Positions 33,586 through 40,503 of a stretch of 64,000 nucleotides of DNA are shown here, one piece after another. Each line of letters begins with the position of its first letter. Position 1 is the stretch's first letter. The notes beneath the pieces are model-generated. The model had not been told where the DNA came from. It saw only the letters and a program-made list of their open reading frames with translations, and did no database searches. The stretch comes from a phage, in the sequence record OZ346189.1; one strand, given 5' to 3'. The position numbers and the translations under genes were made by a program.

Positions 33586-34350
33586 TTGAAATTCATCTAC
33601 AAAGAACACTACCACAAAGGTGTTGTGTGGAGTCTATTTGACGGGTCTGGTGGTGCAGTTATTGACTGGGCAAAAGCTGGGTACCTGTGCCTGTGCTTTA
33701 ATGCAGAAGGTGCTGACCACGGCAGTTATGCAGAGGTGATAACCGATCATCCTAACATTCACTATGTGGATTATTGGATTGACCCATGGTTCCCTCAGGA
33801 AACTTTTTGCATGTATCCAGCTCCAGACTTTATTCTTGCATTTCCTCCGTGCACGCATTTAGCGGTATCAGGTGCTGCACATTTTAAGAAAAAGCTGGCT
33901 AAGGATCCTTTGATCCAAATTAATGCTGTAAAGGATGCTCGGGTTGCGGAAGAGTTGGGAGAGATTTACGATTGCCCGTGGCATGTAGAGAATCCTGTAG
34001 GGGTTATGTCCACACTGTGGCGAAAACCTGATTACCGTTTTCATCCTTCGGATTATGGTGGGTATTTACCGGAGGATGATGTAAACCCCTGGTTTCCTGA
34101 ATTTATAGCTCCACGTGATGCCTACCCAAAAATAACTTGCGGCTGGATAGGCAATGGATTTATAATCCCGGCCACAAAACCTGTCCCGCAAATAGTTGAC
34201 GCGGTTAGCGGGTATTCCATGCAACACGCCAAGCTGGGTGGAAAGAGTGCAAGAACGAAGATGATCCGAAGCCTCACGCCACGTGGCTGGGCAAAAGCCG
34301 TATTCTTAGCAAACGAGCCTGTAGTAAGGAGCAGAATTAATGGGAAGTAA
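33586..34350 (+). CDS. small DNA (cytosine-5)-methyltransferase-like protein, atypical catalytic motif
   Basis: motif I LFDGSGG, motif IV PPCT (Cys kept, Gln replaced by Thr), motif VI VENPVG; track start GTG 33556 lies in the terminator hairpin, TTG 33586 behind RBS aggaga preferred. Confidence 0.55.
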   Translation: MKFIYKEHYHKGVVWSLFDGSGGAVIDWAKAGYLCLCFNAEGADHGSYAEVITDHPNIHYVDYWIDPWFPQETFCMYPAPDFILAFPPCTHLAVSGAAHFKKKLAKDPLIQINAVKDARVAEELGEIYDCPWHVENPVGVMSTLWRKPDYRFHPSDYGGYLPEDDVNPWFPEFIAPRDAYPKITCGWIGNGFIIPATKPVPQIVDAVSGYSMQHAKLGGKSARTKMIRSLTPRGWAKAVFLANEPVVRSRINGK

Positions 34351-36418
34351 ATTTATGGCATCTGCATACAACCGTTTCGGTGAGCCAAACCCGAAAGCAA
34401 TTAAGTATAAAAGTGGGGGAAGTGTGAAACGAGACTATCGTGATGAAAAAGAGGTTGAAACTGTAGAGACTGTTTTAGAAAATACTAAAATCGTCCCTGT
34501 CCCACAACAAAATATCGGTCTGATGGCTGCACAATATTTTGGTGTGCGATCAGCATTGTCCCAAGAAGACGGTGTGACAGTCACTGCAACATATTTCCCA
34601 TATTACGACCGATACGGAAATCTGTCCGGTTTCAAAAAGCGTGACTGGACTATTCCTAAAGAACAAAGGGGCCACTTCTCCGTTGTTGGCATAGTAAAGG
34701 CCAACTCCCAGATGTTTGGTCAAAAGCTGTGTGCATCTTCCAACAACCGTAAGCAGATTAACGTTTGTGAGGGAGAAGGTGATGTTATTGCAGCATGGCA
34801 GGCTGCATATCAGATACAAGTAAAAGGGATTCTCACCAACGCTAAAGCCCCGGCAAAGGTGAAGCAGTGGGCTAAAGAGGTCCAGGACGGGATCGACGCA
34901 GTTATCAACGGTGGTGATCTGGCAGGAAAACCCTGCCTGCCTTTTGTTGGAATTAACTGTGGATGTGCAAACGCAGTAGATACTTTTGCAAACAATGAGA
35001 AGTTTATCCGTAGCTATGGAACAGTTGTGCTGGCAATGGATAACGATGCAGCTAACGAGGTAGAGAAGCAAAAACACGTCATTAAAGGTGTTGAGGCCAC
35101 GCACAATATCGCAGCATTTTTGATGGCTGATAACGTTTACCACGTAGAATACCCTGGTGAAGTAAATGACCCTGACGGGGTAAAAGATATCCGTGACATG
35201 CTGAAGGCTAAAAAGCTGGAAGATATTGTCAACATGTTCCGGCACCCTGTTAAATATGTGCCTGATGCTGTGTCGGATTTAGAAGACTTCTCTATCGAGT
35301 CTTTGCGGAAAAAGACTTCCAACGGGGTAGATATCAGCGCAGAGTTCCCAAAACTGCAAAAAATGCTAAAAGGCTTGCACAAAGGGACACTCGTAATGCT
35401 TACAGGGCCATCAGGGGGCGGTAAAACAACTGTAGCTAAAAAACTGGAACATTGTATTGCAAGATACCTAATGGACCCGACATGCCCGAAGGCTGATGAC
35501 TATGAAGAGGATGATCGTCTATGTATGATCCATCTTGAGGAGGACCCAGAGGAAGCAATTAACTCCTTGTATGCAAACCAGTTAGGGTTTGATGTTAAAG
35601 AGTTTGTTGAAGATCCTAGCCAGTTTTTAACTGATCAAGAACACGCAGAGATTCACCAATCATGGGCAAAAGCTGGAAAAATCAAAGTGTTCAAACATTT
35701 CGGATCTATTCCGGTGGACGAGTTGATTACCAAGCTTAAGCAAATGGTTTGCCTGTACCATTGCCGTTATATTGTGCTGGATCACCTATCCATGGTAATT
35801 TCAGGGCTTAATGTTAAGGATGAGCGAAAAGAACTGGACATGGCTATGACTCAGCTGGCTGCGTTTTGTAAGCAGTTTAACGTGTTTATCTTGGTGATCG
35901 CTCACCTCAAACGTACAGAGATTGTGCCTCCTAAGGACAAGGATGGTAACCCGTTACCTTTCTGGTATCCTGTGCGAAAAGAGAATTTGCGAGGATCGGC
36001 GGGGCTTGAACAGTTGAGTTGGGTAGTCATAGGTGTCGAGGCCGAAGAAATGGTGGATCGTTCTCGTGGACGTGTCCGTCTGGTAGGTCTTAAAAACCGT
36101 CCAGCAAAAACTCTAGGTATTGCTGACACTTTGGTTATGGACCCGCACACAGGTAAGTTCCATGATGCCAGTAATTGGTACTGGGACAAAGAAATGCAAA
36201 TGTTTACAGACGGAGAAGGTGGGGAGGTTGTTTGGAGACCTCAGGCTATGTTTGAGGATCAGGAGCATGCAGTTGTAGAAACACCTATGGGCAAGGTTGT
36301 GGCTGATAAGGTTGTAACTCCTACTGTTAAGCCTGTTGACACGCAGGAAGACCTCCAGTACGATGATCCATCCTCTGACCCGGTCCCTGGTTTTGAGGAT
36401 GATGAAACGCCTTTTTAA
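34340..36418 (+). CDS. bifunctional DNA primase-helicase (T7 gp4-like)
   Basis: N-terminal Toprim-like EGEGDVIAAW and LAMDNDAANE; C-terminal helicase Walker A GPSGGGKTT and IVLDHLSMV. Confidence 0.8.
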   Translation: MGSKFMASAYNRFGEPNPKAIKYKSGGSVKRDYRDEKEVETVETVLENTKIVPVPQQNIGLMAAQYFGVRSALSQEDGVTVTATYFPYYDRYGNLSGFKKRDWTIPKEQRGHFSVVGIVKANSQMFGQKLCASSNNRKQINVCEGEGDVIAAWQAAYQIQVKGILTNAKAPAKVKQWAKEVQDGIDAVINGGDLAGKPCLPFVGINCGCANAVDTFANNEKFIRSYGTVVLAMDNDAANEVEKQKHVIKGVEATHNIAAFLMADNVYHVEYPGEVNDPDGVKDIRDMLKAKKLEDIVNMFRHPVKYVPDAVSDLEDFSIESLRKKTSNGVDISAEFPKLQKMLKGLHKGTLVMLTGPSGGGKTTVAKKLEHCIARYLMDPTCPKADDYEEDDRLCMIHLEEDPEEAINSLYANQLGFDVKEFVEDPSQFLTDQEHAEIHQSWAKAGKIKVFKHFGSIPVDELITKLKQMVCLYHCRYIVLDHLSMVISGLNVKDERKELDMAMTQLAAFCKQFNVFILVIAHLKRTEIVPPKDKDGNPLPFWYPVRKENLRGSAGLEQLSWVVIGVEAEEMVDRSRGRVRLVGLKNRPAKTLGIADTLVMDPHTGKFHDASNWYWDKEMQMFTDGEGGEVVWRPQAMFEDQEHAVVETPMGKVVADKVVTPTVKPVDTQEDLQYDDPSSDPVPGFEDDETPF

Positions 36419-36480: not shown

Positions 36481-39400
36481 ATGAGTATGTGGAATTTTGA
36501 CTTTGAGGCCTCAGGTCTTCTGGACGAGGAAGATCTTTACTACCATTGTGGCCTGTTTAAAGAGTTGAATAAAAATAATTTTATGTTGTTTTTGCCTATC
36601 AATGATAGATCTCATTACAGTGAAGAGGAGGTTGAAAAAGCAAAACAATTTATGCTGGCAAAGCAAGATATCTATCCTAGCTGCTCTGTCCGTATTGCGG
36701 ATTTCAGCCAGCTTGAATGGTGGTTAACCGGGAACTCCGATTGGTCACCCACATCATTAAGTTGTCACAACTGTTTTAGTTATGACTTTATCTTGATGGA
36801 GAAGCTGTCTGGTATTCATTTTGATATGTTCCGTGATCCCAAGTGTATGGGGACAATCAATAATCATCAGGTGAACCTGTTCGACACTCTGCCAATGAGT
36901 CGTATACTATGGCCCGACAGACCGTTACCTAAAGGATGCCCTGATTCTGTATACAATCCTGTTACAAAACGTATGCAGCAGGTAGGTCCTCATGGCCTAA
37001 TGGCGTGGGGGTACGCTTTAGGAAACCAGAAGGTTAAAATTGATGACTGGAGAAATTTACCTCTGTGGAAGTATGTTGATCGTGTATTCGAGGACGTTAT
37101 CATCCAGGAGCTGCTCTGGAAAGAGCTGGTAGCGGAATCAAAAGGTGTATTCTACGGCAAATCTGACATGCAGAACTTTATGTACGATCCAGCCAAAGAG
37201 AAGCCGAAAGGGTTCAAGAAGATTACCTGGAAGAATGCATTACGCCGAGGCATGCTGCAGCACTTCCTGATGGAGCTGCAGGCCCGTCAGGGTGTATACT
37301 TCGACATAGATGGAGCTATTGCTTTACGTGACCGTTGCGATGCGTGGATGAAAGAAATCGCTGATCGTGTTGAACCACAACTACCTTTAAAAGAGCTGTC
37401 AATGTCTCAGCGGCCCAAGTTCCCTGAAAAGCCGTTTAACCAAGACGGGACAATCTCTAATAATGGTTGGAAATGGTTAAAAGATAAGCTTGGCTATCCT
37501 GTAGACATGAGTGCTTTAGAGTTCAAAGCCCCGCCTAAGCGAGCATTTACCTCTACAGGAGATGTCAGCAAGATGGGGATAAAATGGTGTGAAGAGATGG
37601 GCTGCAAAGACCCCGATAAGATGGCTGATTTCTTGAGAGGCTATATTAAGGGCACCTCCACACCACAACCCTTACCTAAAGAGCTGATGGATCAGGCAAT
37701 AAGTGATCTGCAGCAGAAGCGAATGCCTGACTGCAAGATACCTATGAAAATCAGCAATCAGGACGACATCAAGCGATACCTAATCAGTGCTGGTTGGCTC
37801 CCAACAATGTGGAGAACTAAAGATGTAACTAAAGACAGCAAGAAGAAAGCTTTACCTGATGCAGATGTTGATGCACGAGTATATGCATATATGGACGAGC
37901 TTTTGGAGTCAGAGTATTGTGACCTAATTATCAACTTCTGGAACAAAACTGATGCTAAGTTCCAGACAACCGTGCACAAGTTCCGAAGCTTTCCTAACTC
38001 CGAAAGGATTAAAAAGGAAGTATTCGGGAAAATACGTAGAAAAGCCAGGGCACTTATTACTTCTCCGCAACTGAAAGATACGTTTGGACACCTATGCCCA
38101 AATCTTGAAAAATTGAACGGAGAGATGGCTAAAGATATCGTCTTGTGGTTATCATTGCGAAACCGCAGATCGGTCCTTGATCCAATCAAGGAGGATAAGG
38201 TTGATACTGGTCTTCTTAATCACCCACGTTTGAAGATTGACCATAAGCTTCCTGCTAAAAGCTCTGGATTAACAAACACTTCCAGACAGAAACACAGTAT
38301 TTGTGCAAACATGCCTAAACCATCTCCTAAAGTGGTTATGGGTAAAGAGATGCGTAGTCTGTGGGGTGTTCCTCCGGGATACTTTGAGATCGGTATTGAC
38401 GGGTCCAACTTAGAGCAGCTTATCGGGGCTTGGGGTGCCTTTGAGTTCGACAACGGCCTGTATTATGATGTTGTAAGTAATGGCGATGCACACTGTTATT
38501 CAGGAGATACACAAATTCTCACGGAGAAAGGGTGGGTGAGGTTTGAAGATCTTGATCCGGGAACACAAGTGTTCCAGTACGATCACAACACCTCGTCAAT
38601 GAACCTTGTTACTCCATTAAATTACGTTAAGCGTAGTTATTGTGGGGATATGTATCATTTCCACAACAGTAGTGTGGATTTTATGGTTACAGATCAACAC
38701 AGGATGCTGACTGTGGATCACAGAAGCAATAAATTGTTTGAAGATTTGGCAAAAGACCTGAAAGCAGGTAAAGGGTCTAATTCAGGAAGAAGGTTTATCC
38801 ATGCGGCAGAGTTTTATGGGAATACAACCTTATCTCCTGCCCAGGTTAATTTGCTTATTGCTATTCACGATGATGGGCACTTGCATACAAATAAGGACGG
38901 CAGCATCGTGTGCAGGATTCAGGTCGGAAAGGGAAGAAAAGTTGCAACGCTTTTAGATACTTTTTCTGCTCTAAGCCTTAGTTATGTAGAGCAGAGCGGG
39001 AAAACCACAAAAGGGGGCTTACTGGCGAGAAGGTTCCAATTCCACGTTCCGTCCTGGGTATTTGAGTTTTTGGACAACAATAAGGATTTCACCTATAACC
39101 TGATGAACCTTGATAAAGAATCTAAAAACCTGTTTATAGCTTCTTTATCTAACTGGGACGGGTGGGTATCTTCCGAAGGTGGAAAGGTTGCTTACTACTC
39201 CCAGGCCGAGTGCAGGAAGAAATCTGTAGAGGTGGTGTCTGCGCTGGCTACTCAGTGTGGTTTACGGAATAATACGGTGGCGATTCACAAAAAAGGTCGT
39301 GCCGTGCAGCACAGAATCACAATTGGTAGCAAACAGAGAGCAGGGTTGCTGACACTATCTAAAGAGTCTGTCGAGGTGAGCGGTTCTTTGGTTTATTGCG

Positions 39401-40503
39401 TTACCGTCCCTTCTGGAGCAATCATTGTGAGAAGGAATGGTAAAGTGGCAGTGTGCGGTAACTGTAATAACGCCAAAGCTTACTCTTCTGTAGCAGGCAA
39501 GGAGATTTCCCGTAACGATGGTAAACCTATCACGTATGGGGTTATGTATGGGGCACAAAAAGATAAAGTTGCAGATATGCTGGACATCTCCCCAGAGTTG
39601 GGACAAAGGGTAATCGATGCACTCTGGGATGCCAACCCAGGTCTTAAGGGGCGCAAAGAGGATCTGGAGAAATTCTGGGAAGCAACAGGTAAGAAGTTTA
39701 TCTACTCTTTTGATGGTCATGCTATCTGGACCCGATCTAAACACTCTTTACTTAATGCATACCAACAAAATGGCGGTGCATCGTTGTGTGACTTAGTTGG
39801 AATACTCATGCACCACCAGATGGTGAAGCGTGGGTGGTACGATGAAGGTGTTCGTCGTATTATTTATTACCATAAATAACATTGTGGCTTCATAGAGTAA
39901 TCTATGTCGAATAACCTCTTTAACTGCGGGAAGCCTAAACCTTATGGCAAGGTAATCCGCAACGAAGCGCTCAAAAGAGCGAACGCTCAGAGGCCATTCC
40001 GAAAGGAAGTAGACCAGCAAGTGCGGTCGAAATGGGAGGATTCCTGTGGTTGCTTATCATAGGAATATGAGATGGTCCGATCCTACGTGAAAACGTATGG
40101 CTATGCACGTAATGGTGCGGGGTAGCTTAACGACCTACCTGAACTATTGGATGAGTACCAACTTCAAGTGCCTGACACACCGAAGTATAAGACTGTGTAC
40201 ACCTTCGACACAATTGAAGAACTGGAAGCATTTAAGGCAGAGCAGGAAGCCAAACTTCATGTGTTCGACGGTCATAAGTACAAAAAGGCACGCAAGGATG
40301 AGGACGGAAACGAAGTGGTTGACAGAGACGGAAACACGGTGTACGATCCTATCCTGAACGATGACGGAAAGCTTGAACTTATCTGGAGCCCTGTGGGTGA
40401 AATGGTGGTACATTGCTTCTGGCAAGCTTCTAAAATGATGGGAGTCCCGTTCCAGATCACAGGTGAATACTTGTGTGGTCGTAATTGGGGTAATTGTCAC
40501 TAA
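36481..40503 (+). CDS. DNA polymerase, family A (T7-like), interrupted by an intein and a putative group I intron; exons 36481..39873 and 40150..40503
   Basis: Exo motif FDFEASGL; motif A region GIDGSNLEQL...NGDAH; post-intein AKAYSSVAG...ITYGVMYGA; exon 1 ends ...IIYYH; exon 2 starts DEYQLQV and ends RNWGNCH, like the T7 PNWAICH terminus. Confidence 0.75.
38494..39462 (+). mobile_element. intein (323 aa) with LAGLIDADG-type homing endonuclease domain, in the polymerase motif A region
   Basis: in-frame insertion between NGDAH and CNNAKAY; starts CYSGDTQIL, ends VAVCGN with +1 Cys; internal LLIAIHDDGHL and FIASLSNWDGW motifs. Confidence 0.65.
39874..40149 (+). ncRNA. putative ORF-less group I intron splitting the polymerase HDE motif C
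   Basis: exon 1 ends in U (39873), element ends in G (40149); intron GUGG (nt 11-14) pairs with exon CCAU (P1, U-G at splice site) and intron CAUU (nt 7-10) pairs with exon-2 GAUG (P10); in-frame stops exclude an intein. Confidence 0.55.

Follow-up and report, generated by a model that had tools for sequence, protein, structure and literature searches.

The sequence analysed here is a 64,000-nucleotide stretch of phage DNA (sequence record OZ346189.1; the window in what follows), which megablast places in the genus Vequintavirus (rV5-like Escherichia coli myophages). Nucleotides 38494-39462 on its plus strand very probably encode a bifunctional intein, combining protein splicing with a LAGLIDADG homing endonuclease, which has recently homed into the T7-like DNA polymerase gene of this phage. 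An intein with an endonuclease had been proposed at this place in an earlier note, made by a model from the sequence alone, and the proposal now finds support in the presence and absence of the segment among orthologous polymerases, in a Hint plus double-LAGLIDADG fold, and in conserved Cys1, TxxH, Asn and +1 Cys residues. The insertion, the fold, the conserved residues, the family membership and a population signature of transfer are direct observations. The parts of the polymerase gene that adjoin the intein are the following (aa, amino acids; nt, nucleotides):

36481-38493, plus strand: N-extein, residues 1-671 of a family A (T7-like) DNA polymerase, ending ...VVSNGDAH (open reading frame list; 98.6% nt identity to the intein-less phage MaxTheCat; T7 alignment)
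38494-39462, plus strand: intein, 323 aa, Cys1 to Asn323, polymerase frame kept
39463-39465, plus strand: +1 Cys codon (TGT), first C-extein residue and predicted transesterification nucleophile (Cys in 8/8 carrier alleles)
39463-39873, plus strand: first part of the C-extein, 137 aa including motif B SRNDGKPITYGVMYGA, up to the 5′ splice site of a group I intron (T7 alignment; alignment to the intron-less NHEP1 polymerase)

Limits and distribution of the insertion

The segment is an exact in-frame insertion of 969 nt, or 323 codons, inside an open reading frame (ORF) of 1132 aa at 36481-39879 (plus strand), and it translates as CYSGDTQIL...VAVCGN followed by Cys. The 323-aa in-frame insertion described earlier is confirmed to the base by this translation and by BLASTN comparison with MaxTheCat, and the translation likewise bears out the Cys start, the Asn end and the +1 Cys. 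MaxTheCat is the closest intein-less record (98.6-99.2% identical); its left-flank alignment runs up to window position 38493 and restarts past a diverged stretch of 27 nt, which leaves a net surplus of 969 nt in the window. The indel is also exactly 969 nt against rV5, AlexBoehm and LL12. By megablast, the polymerase region is matched by 134 phage records, with more than 80% of it covered in only seven and 74-76% in most others. The insertion is present in 7 of these 134 related records and precisely missing from the rest, that is, from ∼95% of Vequintavirus polymerase genes. Comparisons between alleles below refer to the seven database carriers plus the window (eight alleles), and to four intein-less alleles (MaxTheCat, rV5, AlexBoehm and LL12).

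With the insertion taken out, the protein aligns to T7 DNA polymerase (E 1.5e-13). In this alignment IDGSNLE is motif A (T7 Asp475), NGDAH corresponds to T7 NGDIH506, SRNDGKPITYGVMYGA is motif B (T7 Arg518, Lys522, Tyr526) and YYH-DEY is motif C (T7 VH653-D654-E). The match of NGDAH to T7 NGDIH proposed earlier holds. The assignment of the intein to the motif A region does not, as the insertion follows the counterpart of T7 His506 (between NGDIH and TKNQ in T7), in the interval from motif A to motif B. His506 of T7, the dNTP-contacting (deoxynucleoside triphosphate-contacting) His of the fingers domain, stands 31 residues past motif A Asp475 and 12 ahead of motif B Arg518.

The continuous reading frame, and nothing else, would fit a native or accessory polymerase domain that is retained in the working enzyme. 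Alignment to homologous polymerases, which the earlier note had named as the check for a conserved native domain, instead finds the segment missing from ∼95% of orthologues that are more than 90% identical elsewhere. Homologues of the segment also lie inside unrelated enzymes, its fold is that of a complete intein plus homing endonuclease, and the insertion comes directly after the dNTP-contacting His. A native domain is almost certainly the wrong explanation, and we reject it on the presence/absence data. As the polymerase is essential and the phages with the insertion are viable in culture, the insertion would have to be removed from the protein.

Domain architecture and predicted structure

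In the predicted structure, the segment is a Hint domain (aa 1-105 and 286-323) with a double-LAGLIDADG domain inserted between its halves:

38494-38808, plus strand: N-terminal half of the Hint domain, aa 1-105, with block A Cys1 at 38494-38496 and block B Thr66..His69-Arg70-Met71 at 38689-38706 (family profile against PDB sequences; family conservation)
38809-39348, plus strand: double-motif LAGLIDADG homing endonuclease domain, about aa 106-285
38845-38877, plus strand: LAGLIDADG motif 1 helix, ending Asp127-Gly128
39130-39162, plus strand: LAGLIDADG motif 2 helix, ending Trp221-Asp222-Gly223
39349-39462, plus strand: C-terminal part of the Hint domain, aa 286-323, with block F VYC302VTVPSG (Cys302 at 39397-39399) and block G RRNGKVAVC321-G322-N323 (last three residues at 39454-39462)

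The block B TxxH motif reads Thr66-Asp-Gln-His69, and the endonuclease domain holds a conserved K146-x-R148-K149. AlphaFold prediction from the single sequence reached a predicted local distance difference test score (pLDDT) of 34 and was discarded; an alignment of 32 sequences was used instead and gave a pLDDT of 94.4 and a predicted template modelling score (pTM) of 0.91. The resulting model contains helices at residues 115-127 (ending at Asp127-Gly128) and 208-221 (ending at Asp222-Gly223), each followed by beta-beta-alpha-beta-beta-alpha elements, and shows a pseudo-dimeric alpha-beta-beta-alpha-beta-beta-alpha LAGLIDADG fold. The two LAGLIDADG-like strings picked out earlier, LLIAIHDDGHL (residues 120-130) and FIASLSNWDGW (residues 214-224), both prove to be LAGLIDADG helices in the model.

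A Foldseek search with the model placed the TliVMA intein first (6e-15), together with PI-SceI, PI-PfuI (TM 0.71), PhoVMA and PI-PkoII (alternative name PI-TkoII) in the top ranks, followed by the homing endonucleases I-DmoI and I-SceI, which match the middle domain, and by the AceL NrdHF intein, which matches the Hint part. Superposition values were 24.3 for TliVMA, 22.9 for PI-PkoII, 22.0 for PI-PfuI, 21.9 for AceL NrdHF, 12.7 for I-Tsp061I and 12.2 for I-DmoI; AceL NrdHF superposes at 1.7 Å over 147 of 154 residues, with 22% identity. The archaeal and yeast LAGLIDADG inteins TliVMA (7QSU), PI-PkoII (2CW8), PI-PfuI (1DQ3) and PI-SceI (1VDE) are 11-17% identical to the window intein and are larger (366-537 residues in the solved chains), with extra DNA-recognition regions. 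Their penultimate residue is the canonical His, and they carry Asp at block F position 4.

A large family of phage inteins

Full-length homologues of the 323-aa segment (25-30% identity, 100% coverage) occur in 391 further phage records. Their host proteins include nicotinamide phosphoribosyltransferase (NAMPT) of Staphylococcus phages, NrdA of T5-like phages, NrdB of Tenacibaculum and Pseudanabaena phages, PhoH and ThyA of Acinetobacter phages and PolA of a gut phage, and 186 mycobacteriophages are also among them. All of these homologues begin with Cys, end in Gly-Asn and are followed by Cys, Ser or Thr, and their flanks are unrelated. An exhaustive HMMER scan of 1.84 billion cluster representatives found 7698 that are related at E<=1e-3; the empty result of a word-indexed protein search with the same 323-aa segment is therefore a matter of search sensitivity. 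With the family profile as query against PDB sequences, AceL NrdHF ranked first (E 1.3e-14), followed by the Spl DnaX and Mtu RecA inteins.

Residue conservation was counted over 154 aligned family members. Thr/Ser66, His69 and Cys302 are present in all 154, and Cys1 in 150; the four members without Cys1 all retain Cys302. Position 322 is Gly in 140 members, position 323 is Asn in 131 and Gln in 17 (148 together), and the +1 residue is Cys in 93, Ser in 44 and Thr in 12 (149/154). Position 71 is occupied by Met, Cys, Val, Leu or Ile, and position 321 by Thr (66 members), Ser (49) or Cys (25). In the endonuclease domain, Asp127 and Asp222 are each found in 147/154.

The insertion site after the fingers-domain His is itself recurrent. 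Diverged family inteins (30-37% identity) occupy it in polymerases whose exteins are 46%, 39% and 24% identical to those of the window, and an intein copy of 88% identity (P0002) sits in a polymerase with exteins ∼73-75% identical. Like the window, the same-site metagenomic polymerase inteins P0007, P0009, P0015, P0021, P0087 and P0002 show the arrangement GD(S/P/I/A)H, intein, (T/S/C)xN; they differ from it in their exteins (24-75% identical to the window polymerase) and in having mostly Thr or Ser at +1. We found no annotation or study of these same-site inteins.

A second recurrent site in family A polymerases lies upstream of motif A, inside ...SSxxPN/(C/S)QN(I/L)P... (the first slash marks the site), with members including P0042, P0045, P0062, P0072, P0096, P0097, P0115, P0117 and others. 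Two inteins of the family stand in tandem after ...D(L/I)H in some family A polymerases from metagenomes: P0011 (aa 15-343 and 344 onwards), P0012 (53-370 and 371 onwards) and P0037 (553-875 and 876 onwards). In these tandem pairs the first intein lacks Cys1 (having Ser, Lys or Ala) and keeps the block F Cys, and the second starts CLxxDTE. The Cys1-less first inteins could be natural class 3 members, with boundaries that are uncertain, being calculated from a partial alignment.

Within the window, a six-frame search with the family profile gave a single match, and a second intein of the same family is therefore rejected. The primase/helicase gene directly upstream of the polymerase (34340-36418) contains no intein by the family profile, a search that was confined to this one intein family.

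Probable recent transfer and co-converted flanks

Two stretches of extein DNA appear to travel with the intein:

38466-38493, plus strand: upstream intein-linked markers, synonymous changes at 38466, 38484 and 38487 (shared by the window and at least six of the seven other carriers; unlike MaxTheCat and AlexBoehm)
39463-39519, plus strand: downstream co-converted flank, CNNAKAYSSVAGKEIS versus QNNAEAYTKVAGREVS in intein-less alleles (22 linked differences)

The intein DNA is 97.7-98.5% identical to that of the window in six of the seven other carriers and 88.9% identical in VB-EcoM-WM. The 2-kb 5′ polymerase DNA of the other carriers is 88-90% identical to the window, and that of intein-less MaxTheCat 98.6%. 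All eight carriers share a flank haplotype, in which GGC GAT GCA CAC precedes the intein and TGT AAT AAC GCC AAA GCT TAC TCT TCT follows it (CNNAKAYSSVAGKEIS), whereas all four intein-less alleles read GG(G/A) GAC GCA CAC and then CAA AAC AAT GC. GAG GCA TAT ACA AAA (QNNAEAYTKVAGREVS). The uninterrupted insertion site is GGGGACGCACAC joined to CAAAACAATGCTGAGG, or GGGGACGCACAC joined to CAAAACAATGCTGAGGCATATAC in the MaxTheCat allele. The return to MaxTheCat-like sequence falls between 39519 and 39525, and from 39525 on the window is MaxTheCat-like.

The +1 residue is Cys in all eight carrier alleles and Gln (CAA) in all four intein-less alleles. In 50,697 phage records, the Cys flank haplotype was found only beside the intein and never as an empty site. 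The +1 Cys reported earlier is thus present but not native to the polymerase, and the comparison of alleles indicates that this nucleophile was imported with the intein into a Gln allele. A short co-conversion tract that brings in its own +1 Cys makes this a neat test case for the way in which inteins colonise sites without a native nucleophile.

All eight alleles are intact, and the ratio of nonsynonymous to synonymous substitution rates (dN/dS) is ∼0.1 in the splicing and endonuclease parts alike (for the endonuclease domain against VB-EcoM-WM, dS 0.49, dN 0.049 and dN/dS 0.10), an estimate that comes mainly from one divergent pair because there are only eight carrier alleles, seven of them near-identical. 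Taken together, the mismatch between intein and extein identities, the short flank haplotype that travels with the intein and the low dN/dS argue for recent homing. The population pattern fits homing, and site-specific cleavage of the empty allele is predicted for the endonuclease.

The same distribution might be produced by an intein that still splices and has an inactive endonuclease, as a vertically inherited or decaying passenger spread by ordinary recombination. Such a passenger would be consistent with the lack of a Pfam LAGLIDADG match for the window sequence and with a carriage of ∼5% among related genomes. The K-x-R-K motif and the catalytic Asp-Gly at the end of each helix are preserved, however, and the endonuclease domain has kept a dN/dS of 0.10 at a dS of 0.49. 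An intein identity of ∼98% across backbones of 88-90%, with a linked flank of ∼28 nt upstream and 57 nt downstream, is expected from repeated double-strand-break repair at one site, and the endonuclease of a related intein, that of the Bethlehem recombination directionality factor (RDF), is toxic in E. coli (PMC5050341). We therefore consider a dead endonuclease rather improbable and retain the reading as a homing intein.

Penultimate glycine and initiating cysteine

Several points weigh against the interpretation as an active, bifunctional class 1 intein. On the window sequence, Pfam Hint_2 scores 23.6 bits against a cut-off of 28.4 and NCBIfam TIGR01445 intein_Nterm 14.4 against 24.5, both below threshold, and a Pfam LAGLIDADG scan of this sequence alone gives no match. 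The check by intein and LAGLIDADG profiles that had been suggested gives nothing above threshold for the single sequence; among relatives, 12 of 32 match PF14890 Intein_splicing (best E 2.5e-8) and 4 of 32 match PF14528 LAGLIDADG_3 (best E 1.3e-5). The window intein has neither the canonical penultimate His nor the His of block F, and the weight of one divergent pair in the dN/dS estimate counts on the same side. It is from the presence of Cys1, by itself, that we infer class 1, while Cys302, which never varies in the family, occupies the position of the class 3 nucleophile, and the intein with the nearest solved Hint domain is a proven member of class 3. Splicing and DNA cleavage, as well as the choice of the Cys that initiates splicing, are likewise parts of the interpretation that we infer.

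A penultimate His, at block G position 6, is common in inteins but not obligatory. The window intein has Gly322 in its place; the Gly noticed earlier is real, and it is no anomaly, being the norm of the family (140/154). Nor does it bar membership among inteins, because two relatives with a penultimate Gly splice well and a Gly-to-His change impairs both (PMC5050341, PMC7891396).

The first of these is the Bethlehem RDF intein, which aligns end to end with the window intein (317 versus 323 aa, BLASTP E 9e-12, 21% identity). With the penultimate Gly that it has by nature, its splicing goes to completion; the substitution G316H slows splicing and makes precursor accumulate (PMC5050341). Like the window intein, it has Cys1, TxxHR, a centrally placed LAGLIDADG-type endonuclease and a C-terminal xGN (TGN in the RDF intein) with penultimate Gly, and both have a Cys in block F (VWCLRVPNG in the RDF intein, VYCVTVPSG in the window). 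The hosts differ, as the Bethlehem intein lies in a recombination directionality factor/phosphoesterase (gp51/gp52) of an actinophage (mycobacteriophage).

The second relative, AceL NrdHF-1-1 (PDB 6ZGQ; Hoffmann et al., 2020), splices within minutes, and G145H abolishes its splicing; Arg69 hydrogen-bonds the C-scissile carbonyl and thereby partly offsets the missing His (PMC7891396). Its residues H68-R69-M70, C124, P128-G129 and T144-G145-N146 compare with H69-R70-M71, C302, P306-x-G308 and C321-G322-N323 of the window intein. By analogy, Arg70 (block B position 11) probably takes over the role of the missing His. Unlike the window intein, AceL NrdHF starts with Ala1, is a proven class 3 intein and occurs in nature as two halves separated by a free-standing GIY-YIG gene; it has no LAGLIDADG domain, Thr instead of Cys at block G position 5, and Ser at +1.

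Class 3 inteins are defined by the lack of an N-terminal nucleophile (PMC7891396, PMC5222942), and AceL NrdHF itself is an ‘MCT’ variant of this class (PMC7891396). The window intein does have a position-1 nucleophile, Cys1. It also has a Cys at block F position 4 (Cys302 in VYCVTVPSG), as class 3 inteins do, and the rest of the WCT triplet is replaced, with Met71 for Trp at block B position 12 and Cys321 for Thr at block G position 5. As Cys1 is present and the Trp is missing, the window intein is not class 3 by the published definition, and a pure class 3 intein is rejected for the presence of Cys1. Cys302 can be equated with AceL Cys124 by motif comparison and the 1.7 Å superposition of the model, and we draw the equivalence from these because the window query without its endonuclease domain gave no significant sequence alignment with the C-terminal splicing half of AceL NrdHF. 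The crystallised AceL NrdHF chain carries C124A and N146A.

Splicing of the same intein might nevertheless be started or relayed by Cys302, in a class 3-like or hybrid manner. Cys302 would then attack the N-terminal junction, or take up the acyl group from Cys1, to form a branched thioester that passes to the +1 Cys, and Cys1 would be left with an auxiliary or regulatory role, such as that of a redox partner. We regard this as unlikely, with some chance of being right. Cys302 is more strictly conserved than Cys1 (154/154 versus 150/154), it remains in the four Cys1-less members, and it sits at the position of the class 3 nucleophile, block F position 4. Kelley et al. (2016) treated the related RDF intein as class 1, and their paper contains no C1A mutant (PMC5050341). 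That treatment speaks against a Cys302 route, as does the retention of Cys1 in 97% of members, which argues that Cys1 is needed. Class 3 inteins by definition lack an N-terminal nucleophile (PMC7891396, PMC5222942), the WCT Trp is missing, and block G position 5 is Cys rather than Thr. The Cys at block F position 4 could also merely replace the usual Asp in a non-covalent role.

For the family as a whole, the combination Cys1 ... His-Arg-Met ... block F position 4 Cys ... (Thr/Ser/Cys)-Gly-Asn may, at similarly low probability, mean either hybrid or relay splicing, or a class 1 stock from which ‘MCT’ class 3 inteins arose by loss of Cys1. If true, thousands of natural inteins would blur the boundary between classes 1 and 3. 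Through its signature (penultimate Gly, Arg at block B position 11, and an invariant block F Cys alongside Cys1), the family links a proven class 3 intein with a huge and presumed class 1 group.

Proposed splicing and homing route

On the preferred reading as a class 1 homing intein, the polymerase mRNA would first shed its group I intron and then be translated into a 1248-aa precursor. Cys1 would carry out an N-S acyl shift at the His-Cys1 bond, assisted by Thr66 and His69 of the TxxH motif, and the thioester would be handed on to the +1 Cys. Cyclisation of Asn323, helped by Arg70, would free the intein, and an S-N shift would link ...NGDAH to CNNAK... in a 925-aa polymerase. As a predicted LAGLIDADG homing endonuclease whose catalytic residues are Asp127 and Asp222, the freed intein would, in a mixed infection, cut an intein-less polymerase allele at the empty site, and repair would copy in the intein together with about 28-30 nt of upstream flank and 57 nt of downstream flank. 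Since the recipient allele encodes Gln at +1, the co-converted flank has to bring the Cys codon with it.

The neighbouring group I intron

The polymerase gene continues beyond the stop codon of the ORF, across an intron:

39874-40149, plus strand: group I intron, 276 nt, without an ORF, between the His and Asp codons of motif C (YYH/DEY; VH653/D654E in T7) (Rfam; intron-less NHEP1)
40150-40503, plus strand: polymerase exon 2, 117 aa, ending ...GRNWGNCH (collinear with the single-ORF polymerase of NHEP1 and with T7 from motif C on)

The intron that had been suggested for this gene is confirmed by a match to Rfam RF00028 at 39864-40099 (64.7 bits against a gathering score of 50, E 5e-16) and by its precise absence in NHEP1. 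Its limits are taken from the 276-nt gap relative to NHEP1, with the upstream exon ending in T (U in RNA) and the intron in G. The ORF ends at 39879 because the group I intron interrupts motif C; its stop codon lies inside the intron, so the ORF (1131 aa in the earlier note, 1132 aa here) is not the full-length precursor it was taken for. From the comparison with NHEP1, the intron-spliced precursor is predicted to have 1248 aa and the mature polymerase 925 aa, and the real product of the gene would be this 925-aa polymerase, which arises by splicing first of the RNA and then of the protein. A separately listed ORF at 40147-40503 is really polymerase exon 2.

The same ORF-less intron is found in the intein carriers EPFV3 and YP-6 as well as in the window, whereas the carriers Mangalyan (L018, 3735-4241) and VB-EcoM-WM (L020, 3734-4240) have an HNH gene in the intron, and in the carrier 241Ecol014PP (L003, 5544-6191) an HNH gene is annotated between both exons. 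NHEP1 (L021, 201-3947) has the intein and lacks the intron. The intein-less phages rV5, LL12 and MaxTheCat have an ORF-less intron, and AlexBoehm (L023, 2765-3271) an HNH-bearing one. The presence of the intein and the state of the intron (absent, ORF-less or HNH-bearing) thus vary independently in the genus, with four states among close relatives: intein with ORF-less intron, intein with HNH-bearing intron, intein without intron, and intron alone. Two independent mobile elements have thus settled in one essential gene, each at a catalytic motif: the intein directly after the dNTP-binding His, and the intron inside the HDE of motif C.

Annotation and earlier literature

None of the seven carrier GenBank records (OQ376695, PV435126, MT740314, OR062943, OR449013, PQ014731 and PQ511146) has an intein annotation; the 1132-aa product is called ‘DNA polymerase’ or ‘hypothetical protein’, and exon 2 is entered as a separate hypothetical gene. 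In the RefSeq record of rV5 (NC_011041; L022), the polymerase is split into several small coding sequences. Our literature search found no reported intein in rV5-like/Vequintavirus polymerases, or in family A polymerases generally. The paper on the Certrevirus CB7 places inteins in NrdA, NrdB and the helicase; for the polymerase it describes spliced HNH introns and no intein. The window intein is an ordinary, unannotated LAGLIDADG intein; it belongs to a phage family with the Bethlehem RDF intein as another member and AceL NrdHF as a relative. It would not surprise a specialist; its value lies in a corrected annotation, tidy evidence of co-conversion and the question of Cys1 and Cys302.

Six records labelled ‘Campylobacter phage’ (host C. 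jejuni; MG065635, MG065655, MG065662, MG065672, MG065674 and MG065677) match this E. coli Vequintavirus region at 93-97% identity, which suggests mislabelled hosts or contaminating coliphages.

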